From assembly GCF_014647755.1 (NCBI RefSeq), contig NZ_BMPU01000001.1:850382-914381 (forward strand): a stretch of DNA of 64,000 nt, read 5' to 3'. The stretch's first letter is position 1, and the number at the start of each line of letters is the position of its first letter. The notes beneath the pieces were generated by a model, which saw only the letters and a list, made by a program, of their open reading frames with translations, had not been told where the DNA came from and did not search any database. Positions 7,133 to 63,737 of the stretch are shown piece by piece. The stretch comes from Porphyromonas pasteri. GTDB taxonomy: Bacteria; Bacteroidota; Bacteroidia; Bacteroidales; Porphyromonadaceae. Made by a program: the position numbers and the translations under genes.

Positions 7133-7912
7133 ATGAACTGGCAGAAGCTATACAAAGAGTATTGGCAAGAGGGGAGCATCGTCATGCGCCTCCTCATCCT
7201 ACATACCTTCGCCTACCTCCTTATCGGGCTGACCTCTTGGGCCTGCACGCTCATCACACCCTTACGCTGGTGGAATCTCGGGCTCTCACTCTCCTTCTAC
7301 CCTGAGTGGGACAAGGTACTCTACCACCCTTGGTCGCTCGTCACGTATGCCCTCCCCCACCTAAACTTCTTCCATTTCTTTGGCAACATGTGTCTGGTCT
7401 ATGCGCTCCTCCCCGTGATGGCGTATCGACTCGGGACGCGCAGATTCCTCTGGGCCTATATCGGAGGCATCATCGCAGGGGCATTGACCTACCTCTTAGG
7501 CTACCAGCTCCTCGGTGCACAGACTATCCCTCCCCTGTCGCTGCAAGGTGCTTCAGCTGCCATCCTCAGCGTATGCGCTGCGGCAGTCATGGTAGATCGC
7601 AAGATTCTCTCCTCGTTCACCCTGCGCTTTACGGGGAATCGCATCCCACCCATCGCACTCTGGGTCTTCCTATTCCTCGTCTTCCTCGGTGCTGGACGAG
7701 GAAACTTAGGCGGTCACTTGGCGCACCTCGGCGGGCTCCTCTTCGGTATCGCCTGCGGTCTCTACTACCGCAAGCAAGCCAAGCATCCCGCAAGCGTTTT
7801 TACCAGCGACCGAGAGGAACTGCTACGCAAGACCCGTCACTCGAGCTTCTCCAGCCTAAGCCCCGAGGAGCGTCGTCGCTTGATGAAGAACCTCCCCAAA
7901 GACAAGAACTAA
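7133..7912 (+). CDS. rhomboid family protein (second paralog, GxSA variant)
   Basis: Polytopic. GASAAILS in place of GxSG, with AHLGGLLFG His motif. Adjacent to the first rhomboid gene. Confidence 0.7.
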   Translation: MNWQKLYKEYWQEGSIVMRLLILHTFAYLLIGLTSWACTLITPLRWWNLGLSLSFYPEWDKVLYHPWSLVTYALPHLNFFHFFGNMCLVYALLPVMAYRLGTRRFLWAYIGGIIAGALTYLLGYQLLGAQTIPPLSLQGASAAILSVCAAAVMVDRKILSSFTLRFTGNRIPPIALWVFLFLVFLGAGRGNLGGHLAHLGGLLFGIACGLYYRKQAKHPASVFTSDREELLRKTRHSSFSSLSPEERRRLMKNLPKDKN

Positions 7913-9069: not shown

Positions 9070-10443
9070 ATGCTCAGCAAGAAGATACGCCAGTACCTCA
9101 TTGACTTCCTCGTCGGCTCGCTCTGGGTACAGAGTGAAGGTGACGATCGCTTCCAGCGCCGCTTCGAAGCCATCGGCTATACCGACGATCCTGAGCAGAT
9201 GAAGCTCTATCCCATCGTCATCATCCCCTCAGGCTTCTTCAAGATGGACGTCTACGGCACCGAGGAGTCGATGCCTACCCTCCCGCTGAAGACGTGGCGA
9301 GGGATACCACTACTCTTCGGCGAGCCCCGAGAGGAGTGGAGTGCTGACGGGAGTCAGCTCATCATCCATGCCGACCTCCTCGCCTCGACCTACTTCCTCA
9401 TCTCCCGCTATGAGGAGATGTACCGACGTAGTGAGCGCGACTCCTATGGGCGCTTCCCTGGGAAGAGTTCGCTCCCCTATCGAGCAGGCTTCCTACACCG
9501 CCCCATCATCGACGAGTACGGCGAAGCCCTCAGACAGATCCTCCTCGAGACGGGTATCGCTGAGCGCCACAACCTACGCCTCGAGGAGCGTCCCCAGACC
9601 TTCAGCAGAGTCAACCTCACCCACGACCTCTCCCGCCCGTACAACTATCGTGGCTGGAGAAGCTTCCTGCGTGCATGGCTCAAGCAGAAGAAGAGTCCCT
9701 TAGAGGCAGCACGCCTAAGCTTCTCGGCAGATGTCGAGGACGACTACTTCACCTTCCCCAAGTTCTTCAAGTGGGATCGTAATACCTGCGATAGCTTGGG
9801 TAGGGATAGATCGGATATCTTCCTTTTCATCCGTATGCCCTCGCGCCACCCGCTGGATAAGCCTTACTATAGTCTCCACTCCCTCTACCTCCGTCGTATC
9901 CTCTCGATAGCCGCCAAGCACAAGGTGCTCTTAGCGCTCCAGTGCAGCTATGCCGCGGGGCACCAGTCGGAGCTCATCAGCAAGGAGCGCCATCAGTTTG
10001 AGAAGGCCTTCCGTCAGCGTCCCCGTGGCCTGCGACACAATAAGCTCACCTCCTGCGAGCCCGAGGACCTCTTTCAGGCCTACGTCTCGGGCTTCCGCAA
10101 TGATTACTCGATGGGCTACGCCGATGTCGTCGGCTTCCGCCTCGGCACCTGCCGTCCGGTGAAGTTCATCAATCCCAATACCCGCCTTCTGACAGAGCTC
10201 ATCCTCCACCCTCTCGTGCTGCGCGACCTGACGCTGAGTGATCAGCGCTACATGGCGCTGGAGCAAGATGAAGCCGAGCGCATCGCACACGACCTCATCC
10301 GCACGACAGCTCGATACAACGGCGAGCTCACGCTCCTCTGGCACAACGACCTGCTCTCGCAGAAGACCCACCCCTGGCACTCCGTCCTCTACCGCTCCAT
10401 GCTCCGTCTCATCGAAGAGCTTGGCGCAGAGCCCCAAGCGTAG
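9070..10443 (+). CDS. hypothetical protein (possibly polysaccharide-deacetylase-like; family not recognised with confidence)
   Basis: 457-aa ORF with strong codon bias and no TM segments. No diagnostic motif recognised. Confidence 0.5.
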   Translation: MLSKKIRQYLIDFLVGSLWVQSEGDDRFQRRFEAIGYTDDPEQMKLYPIVIIPSGFFKMDVYGTEESMPTLPLKTWRGIPLLFGEPREEWSADGSQLIIHADLLASTYFLISRYEEMYRRSERDSYGRFPGKSSLPYRAGFLHRPIIDEYGEALRQILLETGIAERHNLRLEERPQTFSRVNLTHDLSRPYNYRGWRSFLRAWLKQKKSPLEAARLSFSADVEDDYFTFPKFFKWDRNTCDSLGRDRSDIFLFIRMPSRHPLDKPYYSLHSLYLRRILSIAAKHKVLLALQCSYAAGHQSELISKERHQFEKAFRQRPRGLRHNKLTSCEPEDLFQAYVSGFRNDYSMGYADVVGFRLGTCRPVKFINPNTRLLTELILHPLVLRDLTLSDQRYMALEQDEAERIAHDLIRTTARYNGELTLLWHNDLLSQKTHPWHSVLYRSMLRLIEELGAEPQA

Positions 10444-10467
10444 TCCCAGCCCCTCACTCGCTCGCCC

Positions 10468-11538
10468 ATGCAAGCCTCCCCCTTCCGCCCACTCACCCTC
10501 CGTCATCCCTCTCCCTTCCCTTATATAGTCTTTGCTGGCCCTTGTAGTGCCGAGACCGAAGCACAGACCCTCGCGACAGCCGAGGCGCTGCGTGCCCGAG
10601 GTATCCGCCTCTTCCGTGCCAGCCTATGGAAGCCCCGCACACGCCCGGGCTCCTTCGAGGGGGTAGGTAGCGAAGGCCTGCCTTGGCTCCAGCGCGTCGA
10701 GCGTGAGCTGGGTATGCAGGTCGCCACCGAAGTGGCCTCCGCCAGCCATGTGGAGGAAGCACTCGCTGCTGGGCTGGATACCTTCTGGATCGGAGCGCGC
10801 ACGACGACAAGCCCGTTTGCTATGGCAGAGCTTGCCGAAGCCCTCAGCGGAGAGCGCGTCACCGTGCTGGTGAAGAACCCACTTAACCCCGATATCGAGC
10901 TGTGGGAAGGTGCTCTCCTACGCCTCTACCAAGCAGGCATCCCCCAGATAGGGGCTATACACCGCGGCTTCAGCACCTACGCCAAGGGACTCTATCGCAA
11001 TGCCCCCCTCTGGCAAATCCCCATTGAGCTACGCCGTCGCCATCCCGAGCTTACCATCCTCGTTGACCCCAGCCATATCGCTGGGCGCCGAGACCTCGTA
11101 CCGCTGGTCAGCCGTATGGGGCTGGAGATGAACTTCTCCGGCCTGATGGTCGAGACGCACCCCGAGCCCGAGAGTGCTTGGAGCGATGCCGCACAGCAGC
11201 TCACCCCTACCGACCTCATCACGCTCCTCTCCCAGCTGGATCTCCGCCCAGCCCACCCGACCGATGACCGCATGCTCAGCGGACTACGTGAGAAGATAGA
11301 CCACATCGATGCCGAACTCCTGCGCCTGCTGCGGGAGCGCATGATCGTCTCCGAAGAGATCGGGCATATCAAGGCCAGTGCCCACCTCCCTATCGTGCAG
11401 CCCGACCGCTACCGCAGTCTGCTGGAGGACCGCTTAGCGCAGGGCCGAGCCTTGGGACTGGATGAAGGCTTCCTCAGGGAGCTCTTCAGCTCGATCCACG
11501 AGGCCTCTGTACACACCCAGCACACCGACAGCAAGTGA
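10468..11538 (+). CDS. bifunctional 3-deoxy-7-phosphoheptulonate (DAHP) synthase / chorismate mutase
   Basis: KDO8P-synthase-like DAHP synthase region (FAGPCSAETEAQ..., WIGARTTTSP, LMVETHPEPESAWSDAAQQL). C-terminal chorismate-mutase-like helix (DHIDAELLRLLRERMIVSEEIGHIK). This fusion is typical of Bacteroidetes. Confidence 0.8.
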   Translation: MQASPFRPLTLRHPSPFPYIVFAGPCSAETEAQTLATAEALRARGIRLFRASLWKPRTRPGSFEGVGSEGLPWLQRVERELGMQVATEVASASHVEEALAAGLDTFWIGARTTTSPFAMAELAEALSGERVTVLVKNPLNPDIELWEGALLRLYQAGIPQIGAIHRGFSTYAKGLYRNAPLWQIPIELRRRHPELTILVDPSHIAGRRDLVPLVSRMGLEMNFSGLMVETHPEPESAWSDAAQQLTPTDLITLLSQLDLRPAHPTDDRMLSGLREKIDHIDAELLRLLRERMIVSEEIGHIKASAHLPIVQPDRYRSLLEDRLAQGRALGLDEGFLRELFSSIHEASVHTQHTDSK

Positions 11539-11948: not shown

Positions 11949-12024
11949 CCCCACCGCTTTCACTCGAGACTTCGCAGAGTGCTCACAGCCCTCTGCCAGC
12001 TCGCCGTATCTTGAGGTAAAAGCA

Positions 12025-12125
12025 ACCAGTACTGGTCACCGAGCGAAGTAGTACTGGTCACCATTAGTTACCAGTACTGGTCCGAAGCGCGACCAGTACT
12101 GATCGGATCAGTGACCAGTACTGGT
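12025..12125. promoter_or_regulatory. array of five 22-bp-phased palindromic sites (consensus GTGACCAGTACTGGTCAC) upstream of the tandem OMP genes
   Basis: ACCAGTACTGGT or one-mismatch variants start at 12025, ~12047 (left half degenerate), 12070, 12092 and 12114. Flanking GTGACC/GGTCACC extend the dyad. Confidence 0.7.
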
Positions 12126-12252
12126 TCATTTTCCCCTCCCCGCAATGCTCTTTCCCCCTACGACTTACGCCACAGCAGCACACCAACAGAAAAATTCCCT
12201 GAATTCACTAATTTAGCGGTACGATACGACACGATCTATACCTCTATCCATT

Positions 12253-13999: not shown

Positions 14000-14435
14000 T
14001 CCTAAGCGGAGTATCTTATTCGGAAGGGATGAAGAGCACCCCCGAGCGAGGCAGTGCAAACCAATAGTGGTATGGGGCATGAACGAATAGTGGTCTGAGT
14101 GCAAACAACTACTCATTCACACCCCATACCAATAGTCCTTTGCACTTCATCGCCTTCTATAGAGAAGAGGAAGCACTCAGGGAAGCCCCCTCTTCCCTGC
14201 AGAAGACGGAGCTACGGAAGGCCAGCATCTCGAAGTTTTCTCTATCGTGGTAGGCAGGGGTAGTAATAGACGTCGGAGAAATTTGCAGCACACACTACGC
14301 GGGAAGGAGCATAGCGGGTAAAAAGCGTATCTTTGCAGGGTAACTTGGGTGGAGTACTTATCAGCTCGTCCCTACCCCCGCAAGGCAAGGGGTGTGTGGC
14401 CATAGCTGGAGTACGCTTCATCCGATATATAATAG

Positions 14436-21510: not shown

Positions 21511-21944
21511 AGCTGAATCTATTTAATGTAAAGTACGACTGGGAGTAAGAGCATCAGGGCGCTCCTTAGAGCTACTTAGCGAGAAAGCAAGAGGTATCGA
21601 GCAGCTTGATAAGACCGCCCCGTTCATTAGAGTCTATTCCTTCCTTATAGCTGATGATCTGTTTCCTCTGCAAAGGTAATACAAATCTTACATATATCGC
21701 ACACGACATAATTAATTCGAAGGGTAAAGCCTGCGAGAATAGCCTACTCTACTTGCCTTCGTCTCACCACTGATCTCCCACTTTCAAGCCACCCAACAGC
21801 CCTATTCAGAGCATTATCTCCCACCCAACTGAGTCGCGTCCACCTAAGTCGCGCAGTCCCTTCCTATACAGCTTCACCCCTCACACACGCTGAGAAAAAG
21901 CCCCATCGCAATAATCAAATAATAGACTTCGTATAGTGTATTTT

Positions 21945-22040
21945 GCTTATCTACGTAGGTAGATTTATCATCCACGCACGTAAACTTTAAGATCCATATG
22001 CGTAGATTTTAGATCCAGGCACGTAGACAGAAGTAATGCT
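21945..22040. repeat. degenerate copy (a) of the ACGT-palindrome repeat family (same orientation as copies b and f)
   Basis: ...ATCTACGTAGGTAGATTT...CACGCACGTAAAC...ATGCGTAGATTTTAGATCCAGGCACGTAGACAG aligns with 28021-28105 and 59120-59205, with many substitutions. Confidence 0.5.
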
Positions 22041-27874: not shown

Positions 27875-27982
27875 CACCACCAAGATAAGACTATTTGCGC
27901 TCAAGCTTCATACGGTAGCGCAATTTCGGAGTCCGTCCCTTCGGAGAGAAAAGCTGAAAGTAGTAGTCAAATGATTTCCTCT

Positions 27983-28215
27983 GAGTACGAATAAAAGTTG
28001 CTGACGAATAGCTGATGAGTTTGATCTACGTGCGTGGCTCTAAAATCTACGTGCGTAGTCTTTGGGATTTACGTACATAGTCTTTAAGACTACGTGCGTA
28101 GACAAAGGAAAAGCACTATGGGAAGCTCCCTTTTCCTTCACGAGAATGTAGATTTTGCTCCGCTGGGCAAGAAAAAACCCCGTGATAGGGTTCCCACCAC
28201 CCTCCCACAGCATTA
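27983..28215. repeat. copy (b) of the ACGT-palindrome repeat family, inverted orientation, upstream of the ABC ATPase gene
   Basis: GAGTACGAATAAAAGTTG...ATCTACGTGCGTGGCTCTAAAATCTACGTGCGTAGTCTTTGGGATTTACGTACATAGTCTTTAAGACTACGTGCGTAGAC... is the reverse complement of copies c, d and e with substitutions. Confidence 0.8.
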
Positions 28216-33194: not shown

Positions 33195-33670
33195 CGAAGG
33201 AGGTGATGTGAACTAATATAGGTCGGCGCGCTGACCTATATTGAGATTGTTGCACAGAGTCCTGTTTCCTATTTAGAGTGCTAAGGCATCGTGCGCCCAG
33301 CTCCCCGATACACCTCTCCGAAGTGACCGAGCAAGCCCTACGCCTTATCACATATATTCCTCTTATCCTGCGAAGGAAAAAGTGTCCTTCTCATGAAGGA
33401 AAGAGCGCCTTCACATAGTGGTTTTTCAGTATCTATGCACGTAGTCTTAAAGACTAGGTACGTAAATCCAAATGTCCACGTACGTAGATATTAGAGCCAC
33501 GTACGTAGCCCAAACTTATTTGCCACTCGTCCACAACTTTTATCCCTACGCGGAGCAACAGTCTCATATTGGTCGAGAAGCGAAGCTATATAGGTCGATA
33601 TATGTGACCTATATTGGTTCGAGCAGTGACCTATATAGGTTCGTCCGGTGACCTATATAGGTCGCTATCC
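33195..33670. repeat. copy (c) of the ACGT-palindrome repeat family (forward orientation) with 5 x 22-bp-phased TGACC-TATATA-GGTCA sites at its right end
   Basis: Left boundary hairpin AATATAGGTC-ggcgcgc-TGACCTATATT (33215-33242). Core 33263-33560 is collinear with 40801-41095. Phased sites start at ~33561, 33582, 33604, 33626 and 33648. Confidence 0.8.
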
Positions 33671-40662: not shown

Positions 40663-40702
40663 TCTCTCGCGCTACCCAAGAGAGTAGCCAACGAGAGCAA
40701 AA

Positions 40703-40751
40703 GGTCACGGCCTCCATCCCTACCGAGTAGAGATGGAGGCCGTGACCTTTT
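40703..40751. repeat. 45-bp palindromic hairpin element, copy 1 (also serves as cbiG terminator)
   Basis: GGTCACGGCCTCCATCCCTAC-cgag-TAGAGATGGAGGCCGTGACC, preceded by CAAAA and followed by TTTTAT. Near-identical to 44071-44117. Confidence 0.75.
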
Positions 40752-40800
40752 ATATGGGGAGCGTATATCTGCTTAGATGAGGCTGTAGCCGAGAGTCCAG

Positions 40801-41215
40801 CCCTCTATTTAGAGTGCTAAGGCATCGTGCGCCCAGCTCCCCGATATACCTCTCCGAAGTGATACGCAAGCCCTTCGCCTTATCGCGAGTATTCCTCTTA
40901 TCCAGCGAAGGGAAAAGCATTGTTCTCGTGAAGAAAAAAGTGCCTTCACATAGTGGTTTTCTCTATCTACGTACGTAGTCTTAAAGACCAGGCACGTCAA
41001 TCTAAATATCCACGTACGTAGATATTAGAGCCACGTACGTAGCCCAAACTTATCTGCCACTCGTCCACAACTTTTATCCCTACGCGGAGCAACAACCTAA
41101 TATAGATCACTTCACAAAGCTATATAGGAAGCAGTCCAAAGCCATATAGCTTTGGACTGCTTCCTATATAGTTCTACCTACGCACCCATATACCTATATA
41201 TGGGATCATTGCGCA
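40801..41215. repeat. copy (d) of the ACGT-palindrome repeat family (forward) with 5 phased TATATA-core sites including a 23-bp perfect hairpin
   Basis: Core has CTACGTACGTAG at 40967-40978, CCACGTACGTAG at 41010-41021 and 41031-41042, plus a half-site remnant at ~40989. Right end has phased sites starting ~41096, 41118, 41140, 41162 and 41184; sites 2 and 4 form CTATATAGGAAGCAGTCCAAAGC-catata-GCTTTGGACTGCTTCCTATATAG. Confidence 0.8.
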
Positions 41216-41225
41216 AGGCTATCTC

Positions 41226-43803
41226 TTAGATATCGAAGGTCGCCGAGAGATAGAGGCGACGAGGACGGTTAGGCCCATAGATGTAGTCCGAAGCTCGTCC
41301 AGGACCCATATCGGTATCCTTCTGATAAGCATTGAGGAAGTTCTGTACCCCCGCATCCAGCGTGAGCTTCACCAGCGAAGTGAGGCTGATGGCATAGCTC
41401 ACACGGAAGTCAAGATCAACAAAGGGCTTTGCCTTGTATAGGTAAGCTGACCCTGCATTCTGCCCACGATAGTGCGTCCCATCACGCACGACATCAAAGT
41501 GCCCCAGAGCATTCAGCTCATTAGCTTGGAGGTTGAGATCCCCCACTCCTTCGTAGGCGGCATGAGGTACCTTCATCGAGCCCGTATAGGTGCCCGAGAG
41601 GACGAAGCTCAGAGCAGAGGTAGGACGAAGCGTAGCGGTCAGATAGCCGTAGAGATTAGGGGTACGCTCGTAGTCTCGTGTGGTGACCTTGGCCTGCGTA
41701 GGATTGTCTTCATCAGCATCGAAGAGCACCTTGTCCTGCCCGTAGAGGCTGCGCTGTAGGGTCACGCCGCCCTGCAGGTCGAAGAGGCGCTGGTACGCCA
41801 GACGAGCCTCGAAGCTCAGGCCATAGACCTTGCTCATCCCGTCACGAGCGTTGATGATCGTGATGACCTTGCGCCCCGTCTTGGGGTCGAGGACACCATC
41901 CTCGTTGTCTGGAGTGAACTTGTCTCGGATCCAGGTAGCGAAGCCTTCACCCATGAGGTTGAGCTGCCAGCCCTTCCCCAGCGTGGTGTACCAGTCGAAG
42001 GAGGCGCTGAGACTGCGAGAGCGCTCTTCCTTCAGATCCTTCGCTAGGACACGCTCCTTGGGCTCACCACCCGCCAGCGTGACATGCATCTCCTCATCGA
42101 AGAACTGAGGAGCACGGAAGCCTTCGCTGTAAGAGAGGCGCAGACTGAGGTCCTTGGTAGGATTGAAGCGTACGTTTGCTCTGGGGCTGAAGATGAGGAG
42201 CGGGTCAATGCTCTTCTGCCCCCCTTGCGTCAGACGGACATAGTCGAAGCGCCCACCGAGGAGGAAGTTCCACCGGTCGGTCGAATACTCCAGCTGGTCG
42301 TACTGAGACCAAGTCGTTGTGACCTGATCGATCCCATGAGCACGGTAGCCACTCTTATCGTTGAGCGTCGAGTAAGCACCCTCAGCACCTACCGTAAGAG
42401 TAAGTGACTTGGGGAACTTGTGGACATAGGTACCGCCCCCCTGGAAGTCAAAGCCCTTGGTCTCGCCATAGGCTGTCAGTGCCTTGAGAGCATCGTCATA
42501 GGCCTTCTGATACACCTCGGCCTGCTTCTTCTCCTCGTCAGTGCCTTGGGCATTACCACGAGGGAGGTTGATCAGGGGCTTCAGAAGCTCATCGGCGTAG
42601 TTGCCCCCACCATAGTAGCTCTTACGCAGGACCTTCTGCCCCGAGGCATAGAGACTGAAGCTGTCGTTGCCCTCAGCAGTCGTCTGGTCGAAGCGTAGGC
42701 TTCCCCCATCGACGAAGTGCTGGAGGTACTCAGCGATACGAGCTTGGAAGGGTGCTTCGCTCAGGCGATCACCACCACGACGATACTCGTGCATGGAGCG
42801 GTATTCAGCCGTCAGCTTGCCATAGATGCCCGTCTTGTAGTAGGCACGGAAGCCGAGGGCTCTATTCTTCAGTTCGGGAATATCGGTGAAGTCATCCCCA
42901 TCGACATCCACGATCCCTCGAGAGGAATGCTGACCGAAGATCATCGCAGCAGCACGGCGGTCTTCGCTGACCAGAGAACCGTTGAACGAGGTGGTAGGCA
43001 TCAGCGAAGTGTATGCCCCCTTGTTCTGCTGGAAGGAAGTATAGCTCTGGCGAAGGCTAGCGGTATTGCGCAGAGGCTCTCTTGTGATCACATTGATCAC
43101 CCCACCGACGGCATTAGCACCGAAGAGGGCTGATCCACCCCCACGTACCACCTCGACACGCTCGATCATAGAGGCAGGGATCTGCTCCAGACCATAAACG
43201 CCAGCAAGCGAGCTGAAGATAGGACGGCTATCGATGAGGATCTGAGAATAAGCCCCTTCAAGCCCGTTGATACGCACTTGGTTGAAGCCACAGTTCTGAC
43301 AGTTGTCCTCGATGCGAAGACCTGGCTGGAAGCGGAGACCTTGGCTGAGGTTCTCCGAATTGGTCTTCTTGAAGATCTCCTGCGAGAGGACGGTGACAAG
43401 GCTCGGTGCATGACGGCGAAGCGTCTCCTGACGATTAGCCGAGACGACGACCCCATCGAGGTCAATACTCTGCTGCTGGAGGTAGAGATCGAGGTGGCGA
43501 CTATTCCCAGCTTCGATACCGACACGGCTCTCCTCCACCCCATAGCCCACGAGACGTGCTTGGATGGTATAAGAGCCCGGAGCAAGGCCTTGGATGGAGA
43601 ATGCTCCATGGACATCGGTCGTCGTACCAATAGTCGTCCCCTTGATGAGAACCTGGACATTAGGAAGGGCTTCGTGAGTCGAAGCATCGACGACGGTACC
43701 CACGATACTCCCCGTCGTCGCTGAGTGCTGTGCCTGAGCTTGCCCAAGGGCCACAAGGACAAGGCTCAGCAGTAGTGCCATACGGCAAATAATACTCTTC
43801 ATG
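41226..43803 (-). CDS. TonB-dependent receptor with N-terminal carboxypeptidase-regulatory-like domain
   Basis: Signal peptide (MKSIICRMALLLSLVLVALGQAQA) and CarbopepD_reg-like domain (TGSIVGTVVDASTHEALPNVQV). Plug region (VSANRQETL...NLSQGL, DSRPIFSSL...GLEQIPASMIERVEVVRGGGSALFGANAVGGVINVITR), then a 22-strand-type barrel. Start taken at the internal Met. Confidence 0.85.
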
Positions 43804-44070
43804 TATACTATAAGTTGATTATACGAATCGGACCAACAACAGAGCAAGACGTAGTCCTCCCAGCGCAACTCACCCGTCAAAGGATCCAGGGAAAGGGCTA
43901 CATGTCGAGCGGAGAGAGAGGCTTTCTCGAGAGCGATTCCTCGGTAGAGCGAGGGATCTTGTTCTGTTTAGGTCTACACAAAGTTAAACACAGAAAGCAC
44001 AACTATGGATCACCTACCCACAAAATACCTATTGCTGGGGATAGACTGATACCCGCTAATAAGCTAATAA

Positions 44071-44117
44071 ATAGGTCACGGCCTCCATCTCTACTCGGTA
44101 GAGATGGAGGCCGTGAC
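44071..44117. repeat. 45-bp palindromic hairpin element, copy 2
   Basis: GGTCACGGCCTCCATCTCTAC-tcg-GTAGAGATGGAGGCCGTGACC, a perfect 21-bp stem. Lies between the minus-strand small-membrane-protein gene end and the TonB receptor start. Confidence 0.75.
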
Positions 44118-44140
44118 CTATTATTATTAAGGAATAGTCC

Positions 44141-45512: not shown

Positions 45513-46901
45513 TTAGTCTTCGCCCTCGACGACCTTGTGGAAGTCCGTGCCTTCCTTGAGCTTACCATCATTAGTAAGCACCCAGGCCTCAGAGGAGCTC
45601 GCCACGACATAGCCACCAGAGAAGCGAGTAGTCTTCAGCGTATAAGCGAAGTGATCTTCTTCATCAGAATAGCTCCACAGCACCTTGCCCGTCTGGGCAT
45701 CCAGGCATCGGAGGATCCTTGTCGCATCAGAGGCTGCCGTGGGCTTGAAAGAAATGAGGACTCGGTCAGCTGCCTCATGAAGGACCGCAGGAGAGAAGTA
45801 GTAAGCCCCTGGGGTAAAGTCTTCGTAGCCCTGCAGGCGTGAGCGCTCTGCTGTATAAGGCAAGACGAAGACCTTGCGATAGGGCGAGGCATCAGTGAAG
45901 ATCCCAGAGCCACCATAGTCTTTCTGCCAGCCGAAGTCTGGCTCATCGTACGGATAACCGACCTGCTCAAGCGTACGGTAGCGCACCAGCTGGATCTGCT
46001 GATCCTCATAGTCAGTAGTCTGACGTGAGAAGGTAAAGTGCGTGCCGACCTTAGGAGCGGGGAGCTTCTCCAGATAGCCCTTATAGGCCATCTTCTCGCC
46101 ATAGAGCTTATTGGGGATAGGATAGTAGACAAAGCTCTTACCCAGATTTGTCATGACCTTCAGGCCATCACCATTGTCCCTATAGACGAACTCTACCGTC
46201 GCAAAGCCCTCGCTGAACTCAGCTACCTTATAGTCCTCGCCATGGATCTCCTTCATATCGAGCGTCGAGGGATCGATACGATAGAGGTGCTTCTTATTGA
46301 GGATAAGGTAAACTGACCCATCTCCGAACTGACGTAAGCCCGTCACATCGACGCTCCCCTTCAGATCAGGGAGCTGGATATCCTTGAGGACCTTCTTTGT
46401 CTCTCCATCATAGAGCCGCACAAAGCCTTGGGCATTCTTTGAGCTCGTATTCATCTGATAGGCAGAGCCACAGACCACCACGACGGGGCGCCCTGCTGCA
46501 CTGGCAAAGAGCTCGATGGGCTCCAAGTCATAGGACATACGCTCCTTCAGAGTACCGGTATAGCCGTAGCCTCCCTGTGAGGCCGCGATACGCTCGGCCA
46601 CACGGTCCATCGAGCGACTGGAGGTGAGATTACCGATGATGACCAGGAGGAAGAATGCAAACGATGCCCCTCCTGCGATGAGGAGGCTGCGCTTGGGGTG
46701 TGCTGAGAACTGCGACTGGATGAAGGAGAAGGGATTCGAGTTATCGGGTACCGTCTCATGCTTGTGATGGATGGTGATATCATCCGAGTCGAGGAAGAAC
46801 TCCGTCGAGCAGCTATCACAGCGGTAGTGATCCTCGCGGATCAGCGTGGCGCGCGTGCTACCGCACTGGGGGCATTTCAGAGCTTTGATGTGCTTGGGCA
46901 T
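45513..46901 (-). CDS. zinc-ribbon / single-TM / beta-propeller-like membrane protein, paralog A
   Basis: N-terminal MPKHIKALKCPQCGSTRATLIREDHYRCDSCSTEF (CxxC-N17-CxxC zinc ribbon), one TM (LLIAGGASFAFFLLVIIGNL), ~370-aa extracytoplasmic domain ending in a PQQ/BamB-like blade motif (RCLDAQTGKVLWSYS). Confidence 0.65.
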   Translation of the reverse strand: MPKHIKALKCPQCGSTRATLIREDHYRCDSCSTEFFLDSDDITIHHKHETVPDNSNPFSFIQSQFSAHPKRSLLIAGGASFAFFLLVIIGNLTSSRSMDRVAERIAASQGGYGYTGTLKERMSYDLEPIELFASAAGRPVVVVCGSAYQMNTSSKNAQGFVRLYDGETKKVLKDIQLPDLKGSVDVTGLRQFGDGSVYLILNKKHLYRIDPSTLDMKEIHGEDYKVAEFSEGFATVEFVYRDNGDGLKVMTNLGKSFVYYPIPNKLYGEKMAYKGYLEKLPAPKVGTHFTFSRQTTDYEDQQIQLVRYRTLEQVGYPYDEPDFGWQKDYGGSGIFTDASPYRKVFVLPYTAERSRLQGYEDFTPGAYYFSPAVLHEAADRVLISFKPTAASDATRILRCLDAQTGKVLWSYSDEEDHFAYTLKTTRFSGGYVVASSSEAWVLTNDGKLKEGTDFHKVVEGED

Positions 46902-47020
46902 ACTGGGTATGAGCTATGCGAAGAGCTATAAATATGTGTAAGTTACGAACGTGATAAAGTCCTGTATTCGTATGGGGCAAAGCCTCTACAAGGACAAATT
47001 TAAGTAAGAAATACGAGTAG

Positions 47021-48331
47021 TTAAGAGCGGCCTTCGATGAGCTTACGATAATCCGTGCTGCTCACGAGCTTACCCTCGTTGGAGATGACGTAGGACGAAC
47101 GGTTGTTCACCACGACATAGCCACCCGCGAAGCGTGATGCGACGGACCCACCATGGAGATTATTTTCATCATCGGAGTAGCTCCACAGCACCTTCCCGGT
47201 CTGGGCATCCAAGCATCGGAGCATTTGCTTAGCGTCATCGGCTGCTGTGGGCTTGAAGGTGATGAGGATCTGGTCTTCCGACTCATCAAGGACCCCAGGC
47301 GAGAAGTAATAAGCCCCAGGAGTCAGATCTTCATACCCCTGCAGACGCGCACGCTTCTCACTGGTGGAGCTGATCAAAAAGTCCTCACCATCCCAGCTCC
47401 GCCATTGGAACCTTGGGTATTCGCAAGGATAGCCGTCCTGCTCGAGTCTACGGTAGCGTATGAGCTGGAGCTGCTTATTGGGATAGTCTGAGGACTCAAG
47501 CGAAAAGGAGAAGTGTGTAGCTACCTGAGGAGCTGGGAGCGTCTCCAGAGGAGCAAAATAAGCCTCCCTCTCCGTATAGATCTTATCAGCAATGGGATAG
47601 TAGACGAAGCTCTCACCCAGATTTGTCTTGACCTCCAAGGCATCCCCAAACTGAGAGTAATAAAATACCACCTTTGCAAATCCCTGAGTGAGCTCAGGGC
47701 GCTTATAGTCCTCACCATGGACCTCCGTCATATCGAGCGTCGAGGGATCGAGCCTATAAAGGTGAGCCTCATTGAAGACAATGTAAAAAGCCCCATCCCC
47801 AAATCGGCGCATATCCATATTCTGGATTCGCCCCTTCACGTCAAGGAGCTCAATCTTCTTAACCAGCTTTTGAGTCTCCCCATCAAAGAAGGACACGAAG
47901 CTCTTAGCATCATCGACATTGCTTGAGCTGGCCGGACGAGCAGTGCCAAAGATCACGACGATCGGACGTCCCGCTGTAGTGGTAAAGGTAGCGAGCTCCT
48001 CAATACTGTAGGACATCCCCTCCTCTCCGCTACCCATCCCCGAGCTTCCTGCACGGGATCTTCCGAAGGTAATAAGCCCTATGATAATGAGTGAGAAGAA
48101 GACCGTCACCGCAAGGAGGACGAGGAAGAAGCGCTTGAACTTCGCTGCGAAGGTATTTCCGAGGGGAGATCCATTGCGCTCCGTCTCAAACTTGTGATGG
48201 ATAGTGATATCATCCGAGTCGAGATAAAACTCTGTCGAGCAGCTGTCGCAGCGGTAGTGATCCTCGCGAAGCAGTGTGGCACGCGTACTACCACACTGCG
48301 GACATTTGATCGTTTTGATATGCGTGGGCAT
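47021..48331 (-). CDS. zinc-ribbon / single-TM / beta-propeller-like membrane protein, paralog B
   Basis: MPTHIKTIKCPQCGSTRATLLREDHYRCDSCSTEFYLDSDDITIHHK; TM (FFLVLLAVTVFFSLIIIGLITF); conserved C-terminal ...PGAYYFSPGVL...FKPTAADDAKQMLRCLDAQTGKVLWSYSD. Confidence 0.65.
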   Translation of the reverse strand: MPTHIKTIKCPQCGSTRATLLREDHYRCDSCSTEFYLDSDDITIHHKFETERNGSPLGNTFAAKFKRFFLVLLAVTVFFSLIIIGLITFGRSRAGSSGMGSGEEGMSYSIEELATFTTTAGRPIVVIFGTARPASSSNVDDAKSFVSFFDGETQKLVKKIELLDVKGRIQNMDMRRFGDGAFYIVFNEAHLYRLDPSTLDMTEVHGEDYKRPELTQGFAKVVFYYSQFGDALEVKTNLGESFVYYPIADKIYTEREAYFAPLETLPAPQVATHFSFSLESSDYPNKQLQLIRYRRLEQDGYPCEYPRFQWRSWDGEDFLISSTSEKRARLQGYEDLTPGAYYFSPGVLDESEDQILITFKPTAADDAKQMLRCLDAQTGKVLWSYSDDENNLHGGSVASRFAGGYVVVNNRSSYVISNEGKLVSSTDYRKLIEGRS

Positions 48332-48407
48332 CCTGTATATGAGCTATGCAAAGAGGTATGTTTAGGTGAGAGGGCACATACTATGCAGGGGGAGGCTGGA
48401 GTTCGTG

Positions 48408-49709
48408 TTACCTAAAGCGGCTATGGATATCCACACAAGTCATCACCTTACCCTCACTGGAGATCAGCCAAGAGTGAGAGTAGTCTACCAATACATAGCC
48501 GCCAGAGAAGCGCGCTACGCCTAAGCAGAAGTCGAGGCCGTCCAGCCCCTCAGAGCAGCTCCACAGCACCTTACCCGTCTGAGCATCCAGACATCGGAGC
48601 ATCTTCTTGGCATCAGCGGCTGCCGTGGGCTTGAAGGAAATGAGGATCTGGTCAGCCGACTCATAAAGGACGGTAGGCGAGAAGTAGTAGGACCCTGGAG
48701 TAAAGTCCTCGTAGCTCTGTAAGCGTGACTGCTCTACGACGTACTGGCTGACAAAGATCTTTTTCGGATAGTATGAATGCCTGTCATTCTCCCAGCCAAA
48801 AGATGGGATATAACGAGGATATCCGAGCTGCTCCAGTGCCTGATAGCGTACAAGCTGGATCTGCTCATCCTGGTAGTCAGATCCCGTCATCTGCTCTGAG
48901 AAGGTAAAGTGAGTCCTGAGCTGAGGCGCGGGAAGCTTATCCTCATAAGCCTTGAAAATTGACCGATCAGTGTAGAGCTTATTAGCTATGGGATAGTAGA
49001 CAAACTTCTTTCCCAGATTCGTCTCGACCTCCAGGGCATCCCCATATTTGTAGAAGTAAAGCCCGACCTTACCAAAGCCCTCAGTGAACTCTGGTAGCTT
49101 ATAGTCCTCACCATGGATCTCCTTCACATCAAGCGTCGAGCGATCAATCGCAAAGAGGCGCTTCTTATTGAGGACGACATAGTAAGTCCCGTCCTCGAAC
49201 TGACGTGCATCCGTCACACTGACACTCCCCGTCACATCAGGGAGCTCAAGCTTCTTGATGATCTCATAAGTCTCTCCATCGAAGAAGTACATGAAGCCCT
49301 TAGCATGATCCCAGTCCCCACTGGAGTCGTCACGGCGCGCAGCACCACAGAGCACGACGATGGGGCGCCCTGCCGTACTGGAGAAGGCCATGAGCCGCTC
49401 ACAGGCATAGGACATATGCTCCTCACCATCCCTCTCCCTCGAGGTCTCTTCTCGAGAGCTTCCCCAGACGATGAGCCCTATAGTAATGAGCGAGAAGAAG
49501 GCCGCCGGCGCAAGGATGATGAGGAGTAGACGCCTAAGGAAGGTATTGGGAGCTGGCTTCGTCTCTACCTTGTGATGGATGGTGATATCATCCGAGTCGA
49601 GATAGAACTCCGTCGAGCAGCTGTCGCAGCGGTAGTGGTCCTCGCTAATCTTTGTAGCGCGCGTGCTACCACACTGGGGACATTTCAGAGCTTTGATATG
49701 CGTGGGCAT
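48408..49709 (-). CDS. zinc-ribbon / single-TM / beta-propeller-like membrane protein, paralog C
   Basis: Start taken at MPTHIKALKCPQCGSTRATKISEDHYRCDSCSTEFYLDSDDITIHHK (the ORF tracker's 20-codon N-terminal extension is probably spurious). TM (LLLIILAPAAFFSLITIGLIVW); conserved C-terminal block ...LRCLDAQTGKVLWSCSE. Confidence 0.65.
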   Translation of the reverse strand: MPTHIKALKCPQCGSTRATKISEDHYRCDSCSTEFYLDSDDITIHHKVETKPAPNTFLRRLLLIILAPAAFFSLITIGLIVWGSSREETSRERDGEEHMSYACERLMAFSSTAGRPIVVLCGAARRDDSSGDWDHAKGFMYFFDGETYEIIKKLELPDVTGSVSVTDARQFEDGTYYVVLNKKRLFAIDRSTLDVKEIHGEDYKLPEFTEGFGKVGLYFYKYGDALEVETNLGKKFVYYPIANKLYTDRSIFKAYEDKLPAPQLRTHFTFSEQMTGSDYQDEQIQLVRYQALEQLGYPRYIPSFGWENDRHSYYPKKIFVSQYVVEQSRLQSYEDFTPGSYYFSPTVLYESADQILISFKPTAAADAKKMLRCLDAQTGKVLWSCSEGLDGLDFCLGVARFSGGYVLVDYSHSWLISSEGKVMTCVDIHSRFR

Positions 49710-49847
49710 CCGAACGATTAAGCTAAGTGGTGAGCTGTGTAAGGGGGTGCTACAGCCCTTACATAACAAGAGGATACACCAAGAGAGCCCGCCTCTATAT
49801 GGGCAGGCTCACTTGGTGCATACTATAGTGGGTGTGAAAATGCAGAG

Positions 49848-50687: not shown

Positions 50688-50995
50688 AACCTATATTGGT
50701 CAAGCAAACCCTTCTTATCGCGAGGATTCTTCTTATCCAGCGGAGGGAAAAGTGTCCTTCTCGTGAAGAAAAAAGCGCTTTCACGTAGTGGTTTTTCTCT
50801 GTCTATGCACGTAGTCTTAAAGACCAGGCACGCAAATCCAAATATCCACGTACGTAGATATTAGGACCACGTACGTAGCCCAAACTTATCTGCCACTCGT
50901 CCACAACTTTTTTATCCCGACGCGAAGCAACAACCTAATAGAGGTCACTTATCAATGCTATATAGCTTCGCCCGCTGACCCATATAGGTTCACAC
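50688..50995. repeat. copy (e) of the ACGT-palindrome repeat family (forward) with 3 phased TATATA-type sites
   Basis: Left: CGAACCTATATTGGTCAAG. Core: ...CTATGCACGTAGTCTTAAAGACCAGGCACGCAAATCCAAATATCCACGTACGTAGATATTAGGACCACGTACGTAGCCCAAACTTATCTGCCACTCGTCCACAACTTTTTTATCCC. Right sites start at ~50934, 50955 and 50976. Confidence 0.8.
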
Positions 50996-56628: not shown

Positions 56629-57741
56629 TTATTTCTGTAGCTCTACGCGCTGGGTCGGAGCTTGCTCAGCGTTGCGACGCTCGATCTGCTCGACGACATT
56701 GCGTGCCAGCGTGCGGAAGTAGATACCCATCAGGCTATCGCGCTGCGTGGCGATGGGCTCACCGCCGTCACCGCATTCGCAGATACTCTGGATGAGGGGG
56801 ATCTGCCCAAGTAGAGGAATGTCCAGCTCTTCAGCCAGCTCCTTACCGCCATCACGCCCGAAGATATAGTATTTGTTCTGTGGGAGCTCGGCAGGAGTGA
56901 ACCATGCCATATTCTCCACCAGCCCAAGGATGGGGACTTGTACGTGCTCGTCGAGGAACATCCCCACGCCCTTGATGGCATCAGCCAGGGCTACCTGCTG
57001 GGGCGTCGTGACGATGAGTGCGCCCGTCAGACCGAGCGTCTGCACCAGCGTCAGGTGAATATCGCTCGTCCCTGGAGGCAGGTCGATGAGCAGATAGTCC
57101 AGCTCACCCCAGTTCGTCTCCGTGAGGAGCTGCTTGAGGGCGTTGCTCGCCATGCTACCGCGCCAGAGCACGGGGCTCTCCTTGTTGACGAAGAAGCCGA
57201 TAGAGAGCATGCGCACGCCGAAGCGCTCGACGGGTGCGATGAGCTCCTGCCCGTCGACGTCCTCGAGGACGGGACGCTCATCTTCGCAGCCGAACATCTT
57301 AGGCTGCGAAGGGCCGAAGATATCGGCATCCAGCAGCCCGACCTTATACCCTGCTTGGGCTAAGGCTACGGCGAGGTTGGCCGAGACAGTGCTCTTCCCG
57401 ACGCCTCCTTTACCCGAGAAGATCGCCAGCGTATTCTTTACCTTCGGCAGCAGGGGTAGGCTATCCTGAGGCACGACCTCGGGGACCTTCACGCTGATAT
57501 TCCCCTCGATCTGGACCTCAGGGCTGACGTAGGTGAGGATGGCTTTCTCAGCGGCCTTGACGACCGACTTGATGAAGGGGGAATTGGGCTTGTCGAAGAT
57601 AAGCGAGAAGCTCACCTTCATACCCTCGATACGGATATCGTCCTCGACCATACCGGCCGTGACTAAGTCCTGACCCGTACCTGGGTAGCGGACACGGCGC
57701 AGGGCGTCGAGGATGAGGTTGGGATATAGTGTGATGGACAT
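56629..57741 (-). CDS. apbC: Mrp/NBP35 (ApbC) family iron-sulfur cluster carrier ATPase
   Basis: N-terminal DUF59-like domain; P-loop ILSGKGGVGKSTVSANLAVALA; CxxC (CECGDGGEP) near the C-terminus. Start taken at MSITLY...; the longer ORF overlaps trmB. Confidence 0.85.
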   Translation of the reverse strand: MSITLYPNLILDALRRVRYPGTGQDLVTAGMVEDDIRIEGMKVSFSLIFDKPNSPFIKSVVKAAEKAILTYVSPEVQIEGNISVKVPEVVPQDSLPLLPKVKNTLAIFSGKGGVGKSTVSANLAVALAQAGYKVGLLDADIFGPSQPKMFGCEDERPVLEDVDGQELIAPVERFGVRMLSIGFFVNKESPVLWRGSMASNALKQLLTETNWGELDYLLIDLPPGTSDIHLTLVQTLGLTGALIVTTPQQVALADAIKGVGMFLDEHVQVPILGLVENMAWFTPAELPQNKYYIFGRDGGKELAEELDIPLLGQIPLIQSICECGDGGEPIATQRDSLMGIYFRTLARNVVEQIERRNAEQAPTQRVELQK

Positions 57742-57751
57742 AGGAGTAGTG

Positions 57752-58498
57752 CTATTGGACTCTGCGTGAGCGGCTGAAGCTGCGGTAGCTATCGGGCTCG
57801 ATCTCGATGTCGGGCTCGACGAAGCCACCAGCAGGCTCCTTGGGGACGAAGTGTAGGTACTTGATCGTCAGACCACGGCTCAGCCACTGACGCTCGTAGT
57901 ACGTCCTGATCCCGAGGATCTTATCCTCGAAGGCACCGTCATAGAGATCGGCCGTATCGGTCAGGATCTCCTGATGGTTCAGCTCAACGAAAGCCTTAGT
58001 ATAGGTGTAGAGGAAGGGGCTATCGGTCTTGAGATGGATCGAGCCACCAGGGCGCAGCACCTCGAGATAGCGACAGATGAAGCGCGAGGAGGTCAGGCGC
58101 TTCGTCACCTTCTTCATCTGAGGGTCGGGGAAGGTGATCCAGATCTCATCGACTTCTCCAGGAGCGAAGAAGCTCGTCAGGGACTCGATCTCCCCACGCA
58201 GGAAGGCGACATTCGTCATACCCGCCTCGTGCGAAGCCTTCGCACCCGTCCAGATGCGAGCGCCCTTGACGTCCACACCGATGAAGTTCTTCTCTGGATA
58301 CAGCTCACCGAGACCTACGGTGTACTCGCCCTTACCACAGCCGAGCTCCAAGACGATGGGGCGGTCGTTGTGGAAGAAGTCCTCACGCCAGCGACCACGC
58401 AGGGGGAAGGCCTCCTGCTGCAGACGTGCGAAGGGATACTGGAGCACATGGGGGAAGGTCTCCATCTCGGCGAACTTCGCCAGCTTGTTCTTTCCCAC
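57752..58498 (-). CDS. trmB: tRNA (guanine46-N7)-methyltransferase
   Basis: 248 aa. ...[17 protein letters not shown]... SAM-binding motif and a TrmB-like C-terminal region. Confidence 0.8.
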
Positions 58499-59080: not shown

Positions 59081-59290
59081 GAGGACGAATAAAAGTGGCG
59101 AACCTATAGCTGATAAGCTGAATCTATGTGCGTGGCTCTAAAATCCACGTACATAGTCGTTCGGATTTACGCACCTGGTCTTTAAGACTACGTACATAGA
59201 CAGCAAAAAAGCACTGCGGGACGCTACTTTTTTCTTCACGGGAATAGCGTTTTCCCCTCTGCTGAATCAAGACGTATGCTATATCGTGAA
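59081..59290. repeat. copy (f) of the ACGT-palindrome repeat family, inverted orientation, upstream of the TPR gene
   Basis: GAGGACGAATAAAAGTGGCGAACCTATAGCTGATAAGCTGAATCTATGTGCGTGGCTCTAAAATCCACGTACATAGTCGTTCGGATTTACGCACCTGGTCTTTAAGACTACGTACATAGACAGC... aligns with copy b. Confidence 0.75.
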
Positions 59291-63378: not shown

Positions 63379-63737
63379 ATATATATGTAGAGGAAAGCCT
63401 ATCCGCCCTTGAAGATAGGGCTCCCATAGGGGGAACCGAGCCTATCCGTATCCGCTCCACGGCTATCCTACGAGCTACAAAAACGAACCTATACAGGGGC
63501 GCCGCTCCGACCAGTATTGGTCACGATACGAAGCAATATAGGTTACTTTCCTCTCCTCGCAGGTATGCGTCTGCAGTGAGCTGGTGGGATATGCTCGTTC
63601 TTCCGCGAGCTAGTGGGTGCGAGTTGGTGGAGTACTGATGCGAGTGCCGTGCGGAGGCTATGCGCTGCCCTCACGGCGGTAGGCATATAAACGGCGATAG
63701 GGTGACGAAGCTTGCACTCCATCACCCTACCTCTTAA

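Follow-up and report, generated by a model that had tools for sequence, protein, structure and literature searches.

What is the repeated element that recurs in a 64-kb stretch of the Porphyromonas pasteri chromosome, and why does it appear to be bordered by a varying number of short palindromes set 22 bp apart? The stretch (64,000 nucleotides of contig NZ_BMPU01000001.1, positions 850,382 to 914,381; hereafter the window, whose numbering is used for all its coordinates) had been the subject of a preliminary description that recognized several copies of the element, here lettered a to f, and read TGACC-type palindromes at one end of each as an iteron-like array. We find that this apparent regulatory iteron array is best explained as the meeting of two repeat systems. 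One consists of palindrome arrays similar to the repetitive extragenic palindromes (REPs) and Neisseria intergenic mosaic elements (NIMEs) of other bacteria, and the other of MITEs (miniature inverted-repeat transposable elements) of the insertion sequence (IS) type IS5. The arrays probably form a dispersed intergenic family that is specific to this lineage of oral Porphyromonas, and the MITEs land on them.

Structure of the Array at Locus c

At the locus of copy c, one complete MITE, designated MITE-A, divides an array into two parts. The features are:

33211–33242, left part of the array, T-type: unit 1 AACTAATATAGGTC (33211–33224), spacer ggcgcgct, and the left part of split unit 2, GACCTATATT (33233–33242)
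33238–33242, left copy of the ATATT target duplication
33243–33565, plus strand, MITE-A copy c, 323 bp, without an open reading frame (ORF) of its own
33561–33574, GTCTCATATTGGTC, one half from the MITE inverted repeat, the other from the split unit
33566–33663, right part of the array: the right ATATT copy (33566–33570) and GGTC, which complete unit 2, then four units
33583–33596, complete unit AAGCTATATAGGTC
33606–33619, complete unit GACCTATATTGGTT
33628–33641, complete unit GACCTATATAGGTT
33650–33663, complete unit GACCTATATAGGTC

The unit is a 14-bp dyad with the consensus R-ACC-W-R-TA-Y-W-GGT-Y, repeated at a phase of 22 or 23 bp with spacers of 8 or 9 bp, and it recurs in copies c, d, and e as well as in related contigs totaling ∼1 Mb. 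The spacers in the right part of locus c are gagaagcg, gatatatgt, cgagcagt, and cgtccggt, and Tandem Repeats Finder reports a period of 22 (2.7 copies, 89% matches) for positions 33604–33662. Across the window, TGACCTATATAGGTCA with up to three mismatches has five matches versus 0.14 expected, and the frame ACCNNTANNGGT has 11 versus 0.48 expected, a number reached in none of 100 shuffles. Five sites had been counted in copy c. Four are complete units at 22-bp steps, but the one at 33561 is composed of half an inverted repeat and half a split unit. The everted pair noted at the opposite boundary (33215–33242) is as described.

MITE-A and Its Insertion into Unit Centers

The repeat element is an IS5-family MITE that has been mobile recently. 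A core alignment of the copies shows that it starts with GAGACTGTTGC and ends with GCAACAGTCTC rather than at ...CCACAACTTTTATCCC; the end previously placed at ...TTTTATCCC is at 33565. Its terminal inverted repeats (TIRs), which in copy c are GAGATTGTTGC (33243–33253) and GCAACAGTCTC (33555–33565), are identical to those published for ISPg4 and MITEPgRS; the ISPg4 ends, GAGACTGTTGCA/CGCAACAGTCTC, are shared with MITEPgRS/MITE464 of P. gingivalis (PMC4596501, Table 2). Four copies have both TIRs intact. Each is 323–324 bp long and flanked by a 5-bp direct repeat (ATATT, ATATT, (A/C)TATT, and CAGTA), and in all four, removal of the element and one 5-bp repeat restores exactly one 14-bp unit that is in phase with both sides. 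Alleles of the c locus from other strains, retrieved via homologs of the neighboring DUF4836 lipoprotein, include empty sites. In L126 and L127, the same flanks and spacers surround an intact GACCTATATTGGTC where the window has MITE-A. MITE-A is also missing from the locus in L105, L073, and L121–L123, and it occupies the locus in L124 and L128. Transposition is demonstrated by the target duplication together with the empty sites, and on these grounds we reject an inverton, in which the inverted repeats would flank a promoter. Likewise, we reject the element as a shared promoter or 5′-leader of a regulon because its flanking genes are unrelated and copy d is between convergent genes.

MITE-A is multicopy, with 5–6 copies in the window and at least 112 metagenome loci. 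Aside from copies c and d, those in the window are incomplete:

21927–22026, copy a, degenerate remnant of only the part of MITE-A with internal palindromes
27976–28190, minus strand, copy b, truncated MITE-A core, inverted, without TIRs or a phased array
50688–50990, plus strand, copy e, boundary unit AACCTATATTGGTC (50688–50701), 5′-truncated MITE-A body, and three units (50933–50990)
59124–59244, minus strand, copy f, truncated MITE-A core, inverted, without a phased array

The three sites of copy e (50933–50990) and its boundary unit (50688–50701) are borne out. The single sites attributed to copies b and f are unconvincing, as they are inside the core and align to sequence of copy c that is not a site. 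Nor are arrays confined to one end of each element; they occur on either side of MITEs and also alone, and alleles L126 and L127 identify the MITE as an insertion into a pre-existing array. The repeat element seems to carry dyad sites at its boundary because MITEs insert into the centers of units.

Three arrays in the window are free-standing, the first of which had been reported near 12025 and is as described. In total, the window holds at least eight arrays.

12024–12127, AGTACT-centered (S-type) array, free-standing, five units, without a MITE
14059–14140, free-standing array, four units with mixed centers AATAGT/ACTACT, downstream of a terminator hairpin
63486–63544, free-standing array, three units with centers TATACA/AGTATT/AATATA, downstream of the terminator of a gene for a 1022-aa nuclease

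MITE-A has internal palindromes as well. Copy c contains four (C)CACGTACGTAG palindromes at a phase of ∼21 bp (∼33437–33510) with variable spacers, a second phased array of a different sequence that is also found at 40964–41020 and 21959–22027. A different element, present in L087 (reverse complement, 7404–7620) and L034, starts with GAGACCATTGCA (an ISPg1-type end) and has six AACGTATACGT palindromes at a 22-bp phase, again with variable spacers. It appears that short phased palindromes are a recurring design in the MITEs of this lineage. In addition, most MITE-A copies have TAAGTTTG (33513–33520, minus strand, in copy c), which matches the Bacteroidetes −7 motif TAnnTTTG and points to the left end of MITE-A. 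This is a possible outward promoter, predicted from the motif, and in five of six copies in the window, the next gene begins in that direction. An outward promoter has been reported for BrickBuilt.

MITE-B and Composite Elements

A second element, MITE-B (GAGACCATTGCGCAAG...CTTGCGCAATGGTCTC), is 113–128 bp in size, has ends of the ISPg1/ISPg9 type, terminates many arrays, and sits in the centers of units. In L047, it is reduced to a 22-bp form comprising the two ends alone (TIR-only MITE-B). Half units abut the ends of MITE-A in 24 of 45 cases and those of MITE-B in 7 of 17, versus a background of 0.6% at random positions. We considered whether arrays are tandem copies of the TIR-only MITE-B and rejected this origin, as a 10-bp interior with a 4-bp junction does not correspond to a 6-bp center with an 8-bp spacer.

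In copy d and similar (d-type) copies, a degenerate right end of MITE-A is followed by units and then by MITE-B. The features of copy d are:

40772–40778 and 41225–41231, flanking direct repeat CTTAGAT, which includes the stop codon of a TonB-dependent receptor gene
40779–41224, plus strand, copy d composite: MITE-A body with degenerate right end, internal array, and MITE-B remnant
41095–41196, internal array, five units at 22 bp with family-conserved spacers
41202–41224, TIR-only MITE-B remnant GGGATCATTGCGCAAGGCTATCT

Both the five sites and the hairpin reported for copy d are present, the latter at 41120–41171 with 26-nt arms that are 96% complementary. The spacers acttcaca, tcagtcca, tcttcgcc, and tacccacg of d-type copies recur in loci with different flanks, and whole composites are bordered by duplications in L015 ((A/C)ATAT, within a unit) and L101 (GAAGG) in addition to copy d (CTTAGAT). 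Copy d is a composite with the leader, minisatellite, and tail architecture of BrickBuilt/MITEPgRS.

Two other structures are near or formed by these elements. Palindromes of 55 nt that form perfect hairpins (AAAAGGTCACGGCCTCCATC...GATGGAGGCCGTGACCTTTTAT, 89% identical) are located 3.4 kb apart at 40699–40753 and 44070–44124; they bracket the TonB-dependent receptor gene and copy d and look terminator-like. In L047, a 1474-bp segment (9620–11094) is bounded by a 113-bp MITE-B and the 22-bp TIR-only MITE-B, with a split unit (AACCTATAT|...|AATATAGGTT) flanking it. The segment encodes a 311-aa alpha/beta hydrolase (PF12146) and looks like a MITE-bounded passenger gene inserted in an array.

Conservation of Arrays across Related Genomes

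To compare arrays, we combined the window with related metagenome loci, for a total of ∼1 Mb with 124 copies of the element. As the 118 loci used for comparison were picked for their MITE-A content, the association of arrays with MITEs is in part ascertained. Among GTDB species representatives, a 23-nt core pattern matches six contigs only, four of which are from two uncultured Porphyromonas metagenome-assembled genomes, and a slightly looser pattern matches at least 112 metagenome contigs. No previous description of such arrays was found in the literature searched.

The ∼1 Mb contains 132 arrays. Spacings between the 271 sites with perfect arms (ACC-NN-TA-NN-GGT) are solely 22 or 23 bp and multiples (22 bp, 98; 23 bp, 7; 44 bp, 57; 45 bp, 20; 66 bp, 30; and further multiples). 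In a logo of 293 units, positions 1, 5, 6, 9, 10, and 14, which were not used in selection, are still informative and symmetric, whereas each of the eight spacer positions has at most 0.34 bit. Neighboring spacers are not more alike than random pairs (3.35 vs. 3.24 matches), and mirror-image complementarity of spacers is overall at chance (3.29 vs. 3.25), with only the outermost pair slightly raised (3.65 vs. 3.25, P = 0.006). Because these comparisons are at or near chance, the arrays are not tandem duplications of recent date, nor are they long hairpins of perfect pairing. The palindromes of the preliminary description are genuine dyad units, phased consistently over more than 100 copies, with spacers that are nearly information-free, and are not a slipped microsatellite devoid of symmetry. 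Some factor keeps the cores specifically, as judged from the pattern of conservation, and the presence of conserved arms beside free spacers makes recognition by a sequence-specific protein plausible.

Position and size of arrays are also constrained. Among arrays of at least three units, 91 of 94 are intergenic, with the neighboring genes in tandem, divergent, or convergent orientation. On either side, the outward flank is rich in C (36–41% C vs. 12–17% G), forming an inverted frame of G-rich, array, and C-rich sequence. The modal count in free-standing arrays is five units.

Five-unit T-type arrays are also present in predicted viral contigs of IMG/VR (L129, L130, L131, L132, and L133), with five units in each of these five array-bearing contigs. 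In L131 (7304–12949), the array (10308–10420) is located exactly between a module with a tyrosine integrase and Bro-N (∼50% G + C) and a host-like topoisomerase gene (∼60% G + C). Arrays may also be attachment sites for integrative elements.

Variation in Unit Number among Strains

The number of sites was initially described as variable between copies, and a comparison of strains at the same locus had been set as a check beforehand. Unit number differs at both levels. To the right of 76 MITE-A copies, arrays range from 0 to 9 units. In 13 of 36 orthologous pairs, defined by a two-flank criterion, lengths differ, and all differences are approximately multiples of 22 bp (±1, 2, 3, or 4 units). 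Copy e has three units and its ortholog in L047 has one (44 bp fewer); similarly, five units in L024 correspond to two in L020 and five in L084 to one in L056. At the c locus, strains have five, six, or seven units. Altogether, unit number between strains at one locus spans 1–7. Recent tandem duplications of identical units are occasional, with at least five consecutive AAGCTATATAGGAAtccaagta units in L075 and a doubled cgagcagtGACCTATATAGGTT in L126.

Arrays and MITEs bear on strain typing and metagenome binning of abundant oral taxa, as they are hypervariable in steps of 22 bp and fragment short-read assemblies of this taxon. Short-read metagenome contigs often end at or beside them (L119, L124, and L125).

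Concerted Switch of Unit Centers

Strains also differ in the centers of units. At the c locus, the window, L124, L126, L127, and L128 have TATATA or TATATT centers, and L105, L073, L121, L122, and L123, which are of the same species and lack the MITE, have a five-unit array in which all centers are AGTACT. The two haplotypes share the right flank, spacers 2–4, and the variant arm AAG in unit 3. Spacers 2, 3, and 4 are aagaagcg, gatatatgc, and cgatcggt in the AGTACT haplotype and gagaagcg, gatatatgt, and cgtccagt in the TATATA haplotype. Differences are found at 3 of 40 arm positions, 0 of 10 central TA positions, and 9 of 33 spacer positions, versus 17 of 20 at center positions 5, 6, 9, and 10. 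An unrelated locus (L083 vs. L011) has the same pattern, with differences at 10 of 12 center, 5 of 16 spacer, and 5 of 24 arm positions. No intermediate center alleles are present among the ten c-locus contigs. Neutral divergence is ruled out for the switch because centers differ more than spacers and do so uniformly.

A block switch with spacers kept points to either a specificity code of DNA-binding proteins or a mechanism of short-patch conversion. The switch could possibly result from selection for arrays of uniform type that are read by different proteins, from short-patch or template-switch conversion confined to palindromes, or from a rewriting process of a new sort. In a bolder reading, which we consider rather unlikely, the cores would be recognition sites of a dedicated system (an IS5-family transposase or a domesticated relative) that steers MITEs, passenger genes bounded by MITEs, and perhaps integrase elements to intergenic "landing pads" where they do no harm and that rewrites the six central bases array-wide (TATATA to AGTACT or the reverse) with arms and spacers untouched. 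If true, this would be a core-limited, site-directed conversion of sequence, of a kind not described for bacterial repeats.

A Model of Arrays as Landing Sites and Its Alternatives

In the model that we favor, arrays are in the chromosome beforehand, and IS5-family MITEs land on them by preference. Both MITE-A (323 bp, with ends of the ISPg4/PgRS type) and MITE-B (22–128 bp, with ISPg1-type ends) enter the TA-rich center of a unit, duplicating 5 bp. Where two MITE ends come to bracket part of an array, they make a mobile composite that has a 22-bp minisatellite of variable copy number inside it, as in copy d. Whole units of 22 bp are gained or lost via recombination or slippage between conserved cores. 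Arms and the central TA would be maintained because a sequence-specific dimeric protein reads them, a step that we infer. The best candidate reader is an IS5-family transposase, with a host DNA-binding protein as the alternative. A transposase would be the simplest candidate because the arm GACCA/TGGTC is the same as bases 3–7 of the MITE-B end GAGACCATTGC, and as reader of the cores, it would explain the choice of target. Built on the anatomy, insertion polarity, target duplications, empty sites, copy-number polymorphism, and intergenic restriction observed above, the explanation as a whole, with arrays targeted by MITEs, captured in composites, and read by a protein, is likely to be correct.

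Several points weigh against it. No autonomous IS5-family element with the ends of MITE-A or MITE-B is present in the window or the ∼1 Mb of loci, in which only the MITE-bounded hydrolase gene in L047 was found, and both a mobilizing transposase and a protein reader of the cores are putative. Simple tandem duplication does not explain the origin of arrays because adjacent spacers are unrelated, and the concerted switch between TATATA and AGTACT at two orthologous loci is not predicted by the model. Loci were also chosen for MITE-A, but the 0.6% background and the empty sites argue that the association is real.

The main rival explanation assigns the arrays to a host dimeric DNA-binding protein, for which they would be cooperative operator or nucleoid-organizing sites. 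Five in-phase palindromes on one face of the helix would nucleate a nucleoprotein filament that regulates or insulates neighboring genes, and MITE insertion would be secondary. The conservation of arms and central TA beside free spacers, the strict two-turn phasing, and the modal five units of free-standing arrays, IMG/VR contigs included, are consistent with such sites. Two paralogous readers would fit the tendency of arrays to a uniform center type, which changes en bloc from one allele to another. Relatively many arrays are in divergent intergenic regions (20 of 67, compared with 51 of 389 for all intergenic regions). However, the adjoining genes are unrelated housekeeping genes, arrays are also between convergent genes and downstream of terminators, and we identified no candidate regulator. 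A range of one to seven units by strain is unusual for a tuned operator, and this polymorphism argues against a fixed operator architecture. Of the earlier proposal of a nucleoprotein-assembly site, recognition by a protein is plausible, and we regard the operator or nucleoid explanation as unlikely. Its extension to replication iterons or centromere-like partition sites is scarcely credible. Plasmid iterons and parC-type centromeres have ∼22-bp phased repeats, suggesting binding on one helical face, and the direct phasing and dyad symmetry seen here resemble iterons and parC/parS arrays. But the arrays are chromosomal, numerous (∼8 in the window and 132 in ∼1 Mb), and polymorphic between strains, have palindromic cores and free spacers rather than whole-unit direct repeats, and are in a housekeeping context without adjacent rep, parA/parB, or plasmid genes. 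Iterons would be expected as a single array per replicon beside a rep gene, with DnaA boxes or an AT-rich region for unwinding, and partition centromeres as a few sites per replicon next to an operon of the parA/parB type. The sole ParA-like match in the window (56629–57828) is an Mrp/NUBPL iron-sulfur protein with no array beside it.

Alternatively, what matters could be hairpins of DNA or RNA rather than duplex sites, if the arrays were similar to REPs or REPINs and spread by a tyrosine transposase (of the REP-associated tyrosine transposase [RAYT] or IS200 type) or a similar enzyme. Short, clustered, intergenic imperfect palindromes at high density would be expected, and single-stranded arrays fold far more stably than shuffled sequences (z between −7.4 and −11.1) through pairing of one unit with another. 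Complementary bases exceed expectation at positions 5/10 (310 vs. 224) and 6/9 (321 vs. 223), and the weak mirror complementarity of outermost spacers and the inverted G-rich and C-rich frames point the same way. Yet ∼40% of units have a non-palindromic center (AATATA, TATATT, AATAGT, or AGTAGT), which leaves a self-hairpin of only 4 bp, no ORF of at least 90 aa is flanked by units in the ∼1 Mb, and the conserved 5′ GTAG-type tetranucleotide is absent. With mirror complementarity of spacers at chance overall, arrays as whole hairpin elements are rejected, and the hairpin explanation in general is improbable. Finally, the arrays could be neutral minisatellites that arose by slipped-strand replication, have no function in recognition, and owe their dyad symmetry to chance in the founding unit. 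Slippage would produce both the differences in length by 22-bp multiples and the occasional identical duplications in L075 and L126. Nevertheless, spacers within an array are unrelated while cores are conserved over hundreds of units at many loci, and the old alleles of the c locus differ at 3 of 40 arm and 9 of 33 spacer positions, where neutral decay would strike both equally. We consider neutrality very improbable.

Comparison with Known Systems

By its ends, target duplication, empty site, size, and copy number, the repeat element belongs to the IS5-derived MITEs of Porphyromonas. Ends of MITE-A are those of ISPg4 and MITEPgRS, and ends of MITE-B are those of ISPg1 and ISPg9. In P. gingivalis, BrickBuilt has 1–22.8 copies of a 23-nt repeat (PMC4596501), and MITEPgRS has up to 14 internal repeats, known as "Repeat C" (PMC2575886). 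These elements are from the same genus, have IS5-family TIRs of the GAGAC(C/T)NTTGC type, and are likewise always intergenic and non-coding, with many truncated copies. Their succession of leader, variable-number tandem repeat, and tail is shared by copy d and many d-type loci. We compared them with MITE-A and the composites through ends and architecture. The composite works like BrickBuilt/MITEPgRS but with a different repeat unit. Relative to the unit here (RACCWRTAYWGGTY + N8), the BrickBuilt 23-mer AGAYCATARTATCCTCTCRTRTG has another length and no dyad arms and is at most a degenerate relative. Free-standing arrays as MITE targets were found here and are not described for P. gingivalis. 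With these findings, the class of MITEs that bear a minisatellite, known from P. gingivalis, now includes members in commensal oral Porphyromonas, and an origin is suggested for them, in which two MITE ends capture the target array that lies between them. Insertion specific to unit centers also provides a tractable case of target choice by IS5-family transposases.

The closest analogs of the free-standing arrays, by structure and use, are REP arrays, including those of bacterial interspersed mosaic elements (BIMEs), and the dRS3/NIME arrays of Neisseria. Enterobacterial REP/BIME clusters and REPINs are intergenic imperfect palindromes, and IS1397 and ISKpn1 insert specifically in the center or loop of the palindrome. 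REP units are ∼35 bp and alternate in orientation, with defined linkers between them, and they are associated with RAYT transposases and with binding of gyrase and IHF. Intergenic clustering of imperfect palindromes, high copy number, and center-targeting insertions are common to REP/BIME clusters and the arrays. In contrast, units here are 14 bp at a fixed phase, the inserting elements are IS5-family MITEs, and no unit-flanked RAYT is present in the ∼1 Mb. Neisseria dRS3 (ATTCCC-N8-GGGAAT) occurs hundreds of times per genome in intergenic arrays that differ between strains, serve as integration targets of prophage Nf1, and are associated with the Correia and ATR MITEs (PMC3898611). It is similar in having conserved inverted arms, a variable middle, and intergenic arrays used as integration targets. 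However, dRS3 units are separated by 30–160-bp RS segments rather than 8–9-bp spacers at a fixed 22-bp phase, arms are ATTCCC/GGGAAT rather than ACC/GGT, centers differ, and the known user is an IS110-type recombinase or phage rather than an IS5-type MITE. Block switching of centers, seen here, is not reported there. Fixed 22-bp phase, free 8-bp spacers, a five-unit module, and block switching of centers set the arrays apart from both analogs. They also differ from a clustered regularly interspaced short palindromic repeat (CRISPR) locus, which has repeats of at least 23 bp, ∼30-bp spacers, and cas genes; cores here are 14 bp, spacers are 8 bp, and the window has no cas genes.

Genomic Context

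The window is ordinary chromosome with a G + C content of 57% and has genes for CTP synthase, YidC, cobalamin functions, a NorB-like oxidase, RNase P, and 5S rRNA. It lacks transposase, rep, and par genes. The genes that flank arrays and elements are functionally unrelated and include OsmC, an ABC transporter, a dGTPase-like HD protein, a nitroreductase, and a tetratricopeptide repeat (TPR) protein. In an Rfam covariance scan of the window, the gathering score is reached by RNase P and 5S rRNA alone, and the arrays match no known structured RNA family.

A gene for an HU-HIG family DNA-binding protein (PF18291; 22608–23006) follows a 1.1-kb intergenic region that holds degenerate copy a. Elsewhere in the window (45513–49769, minus strand), three paralogous genes encoding proteins of 436–462 aa are arranged in tandem, with DNA blocks that are 65–83% identical at a spacing of ∼1.4 kb and a weak match to DUF5074 as their sole domain match.

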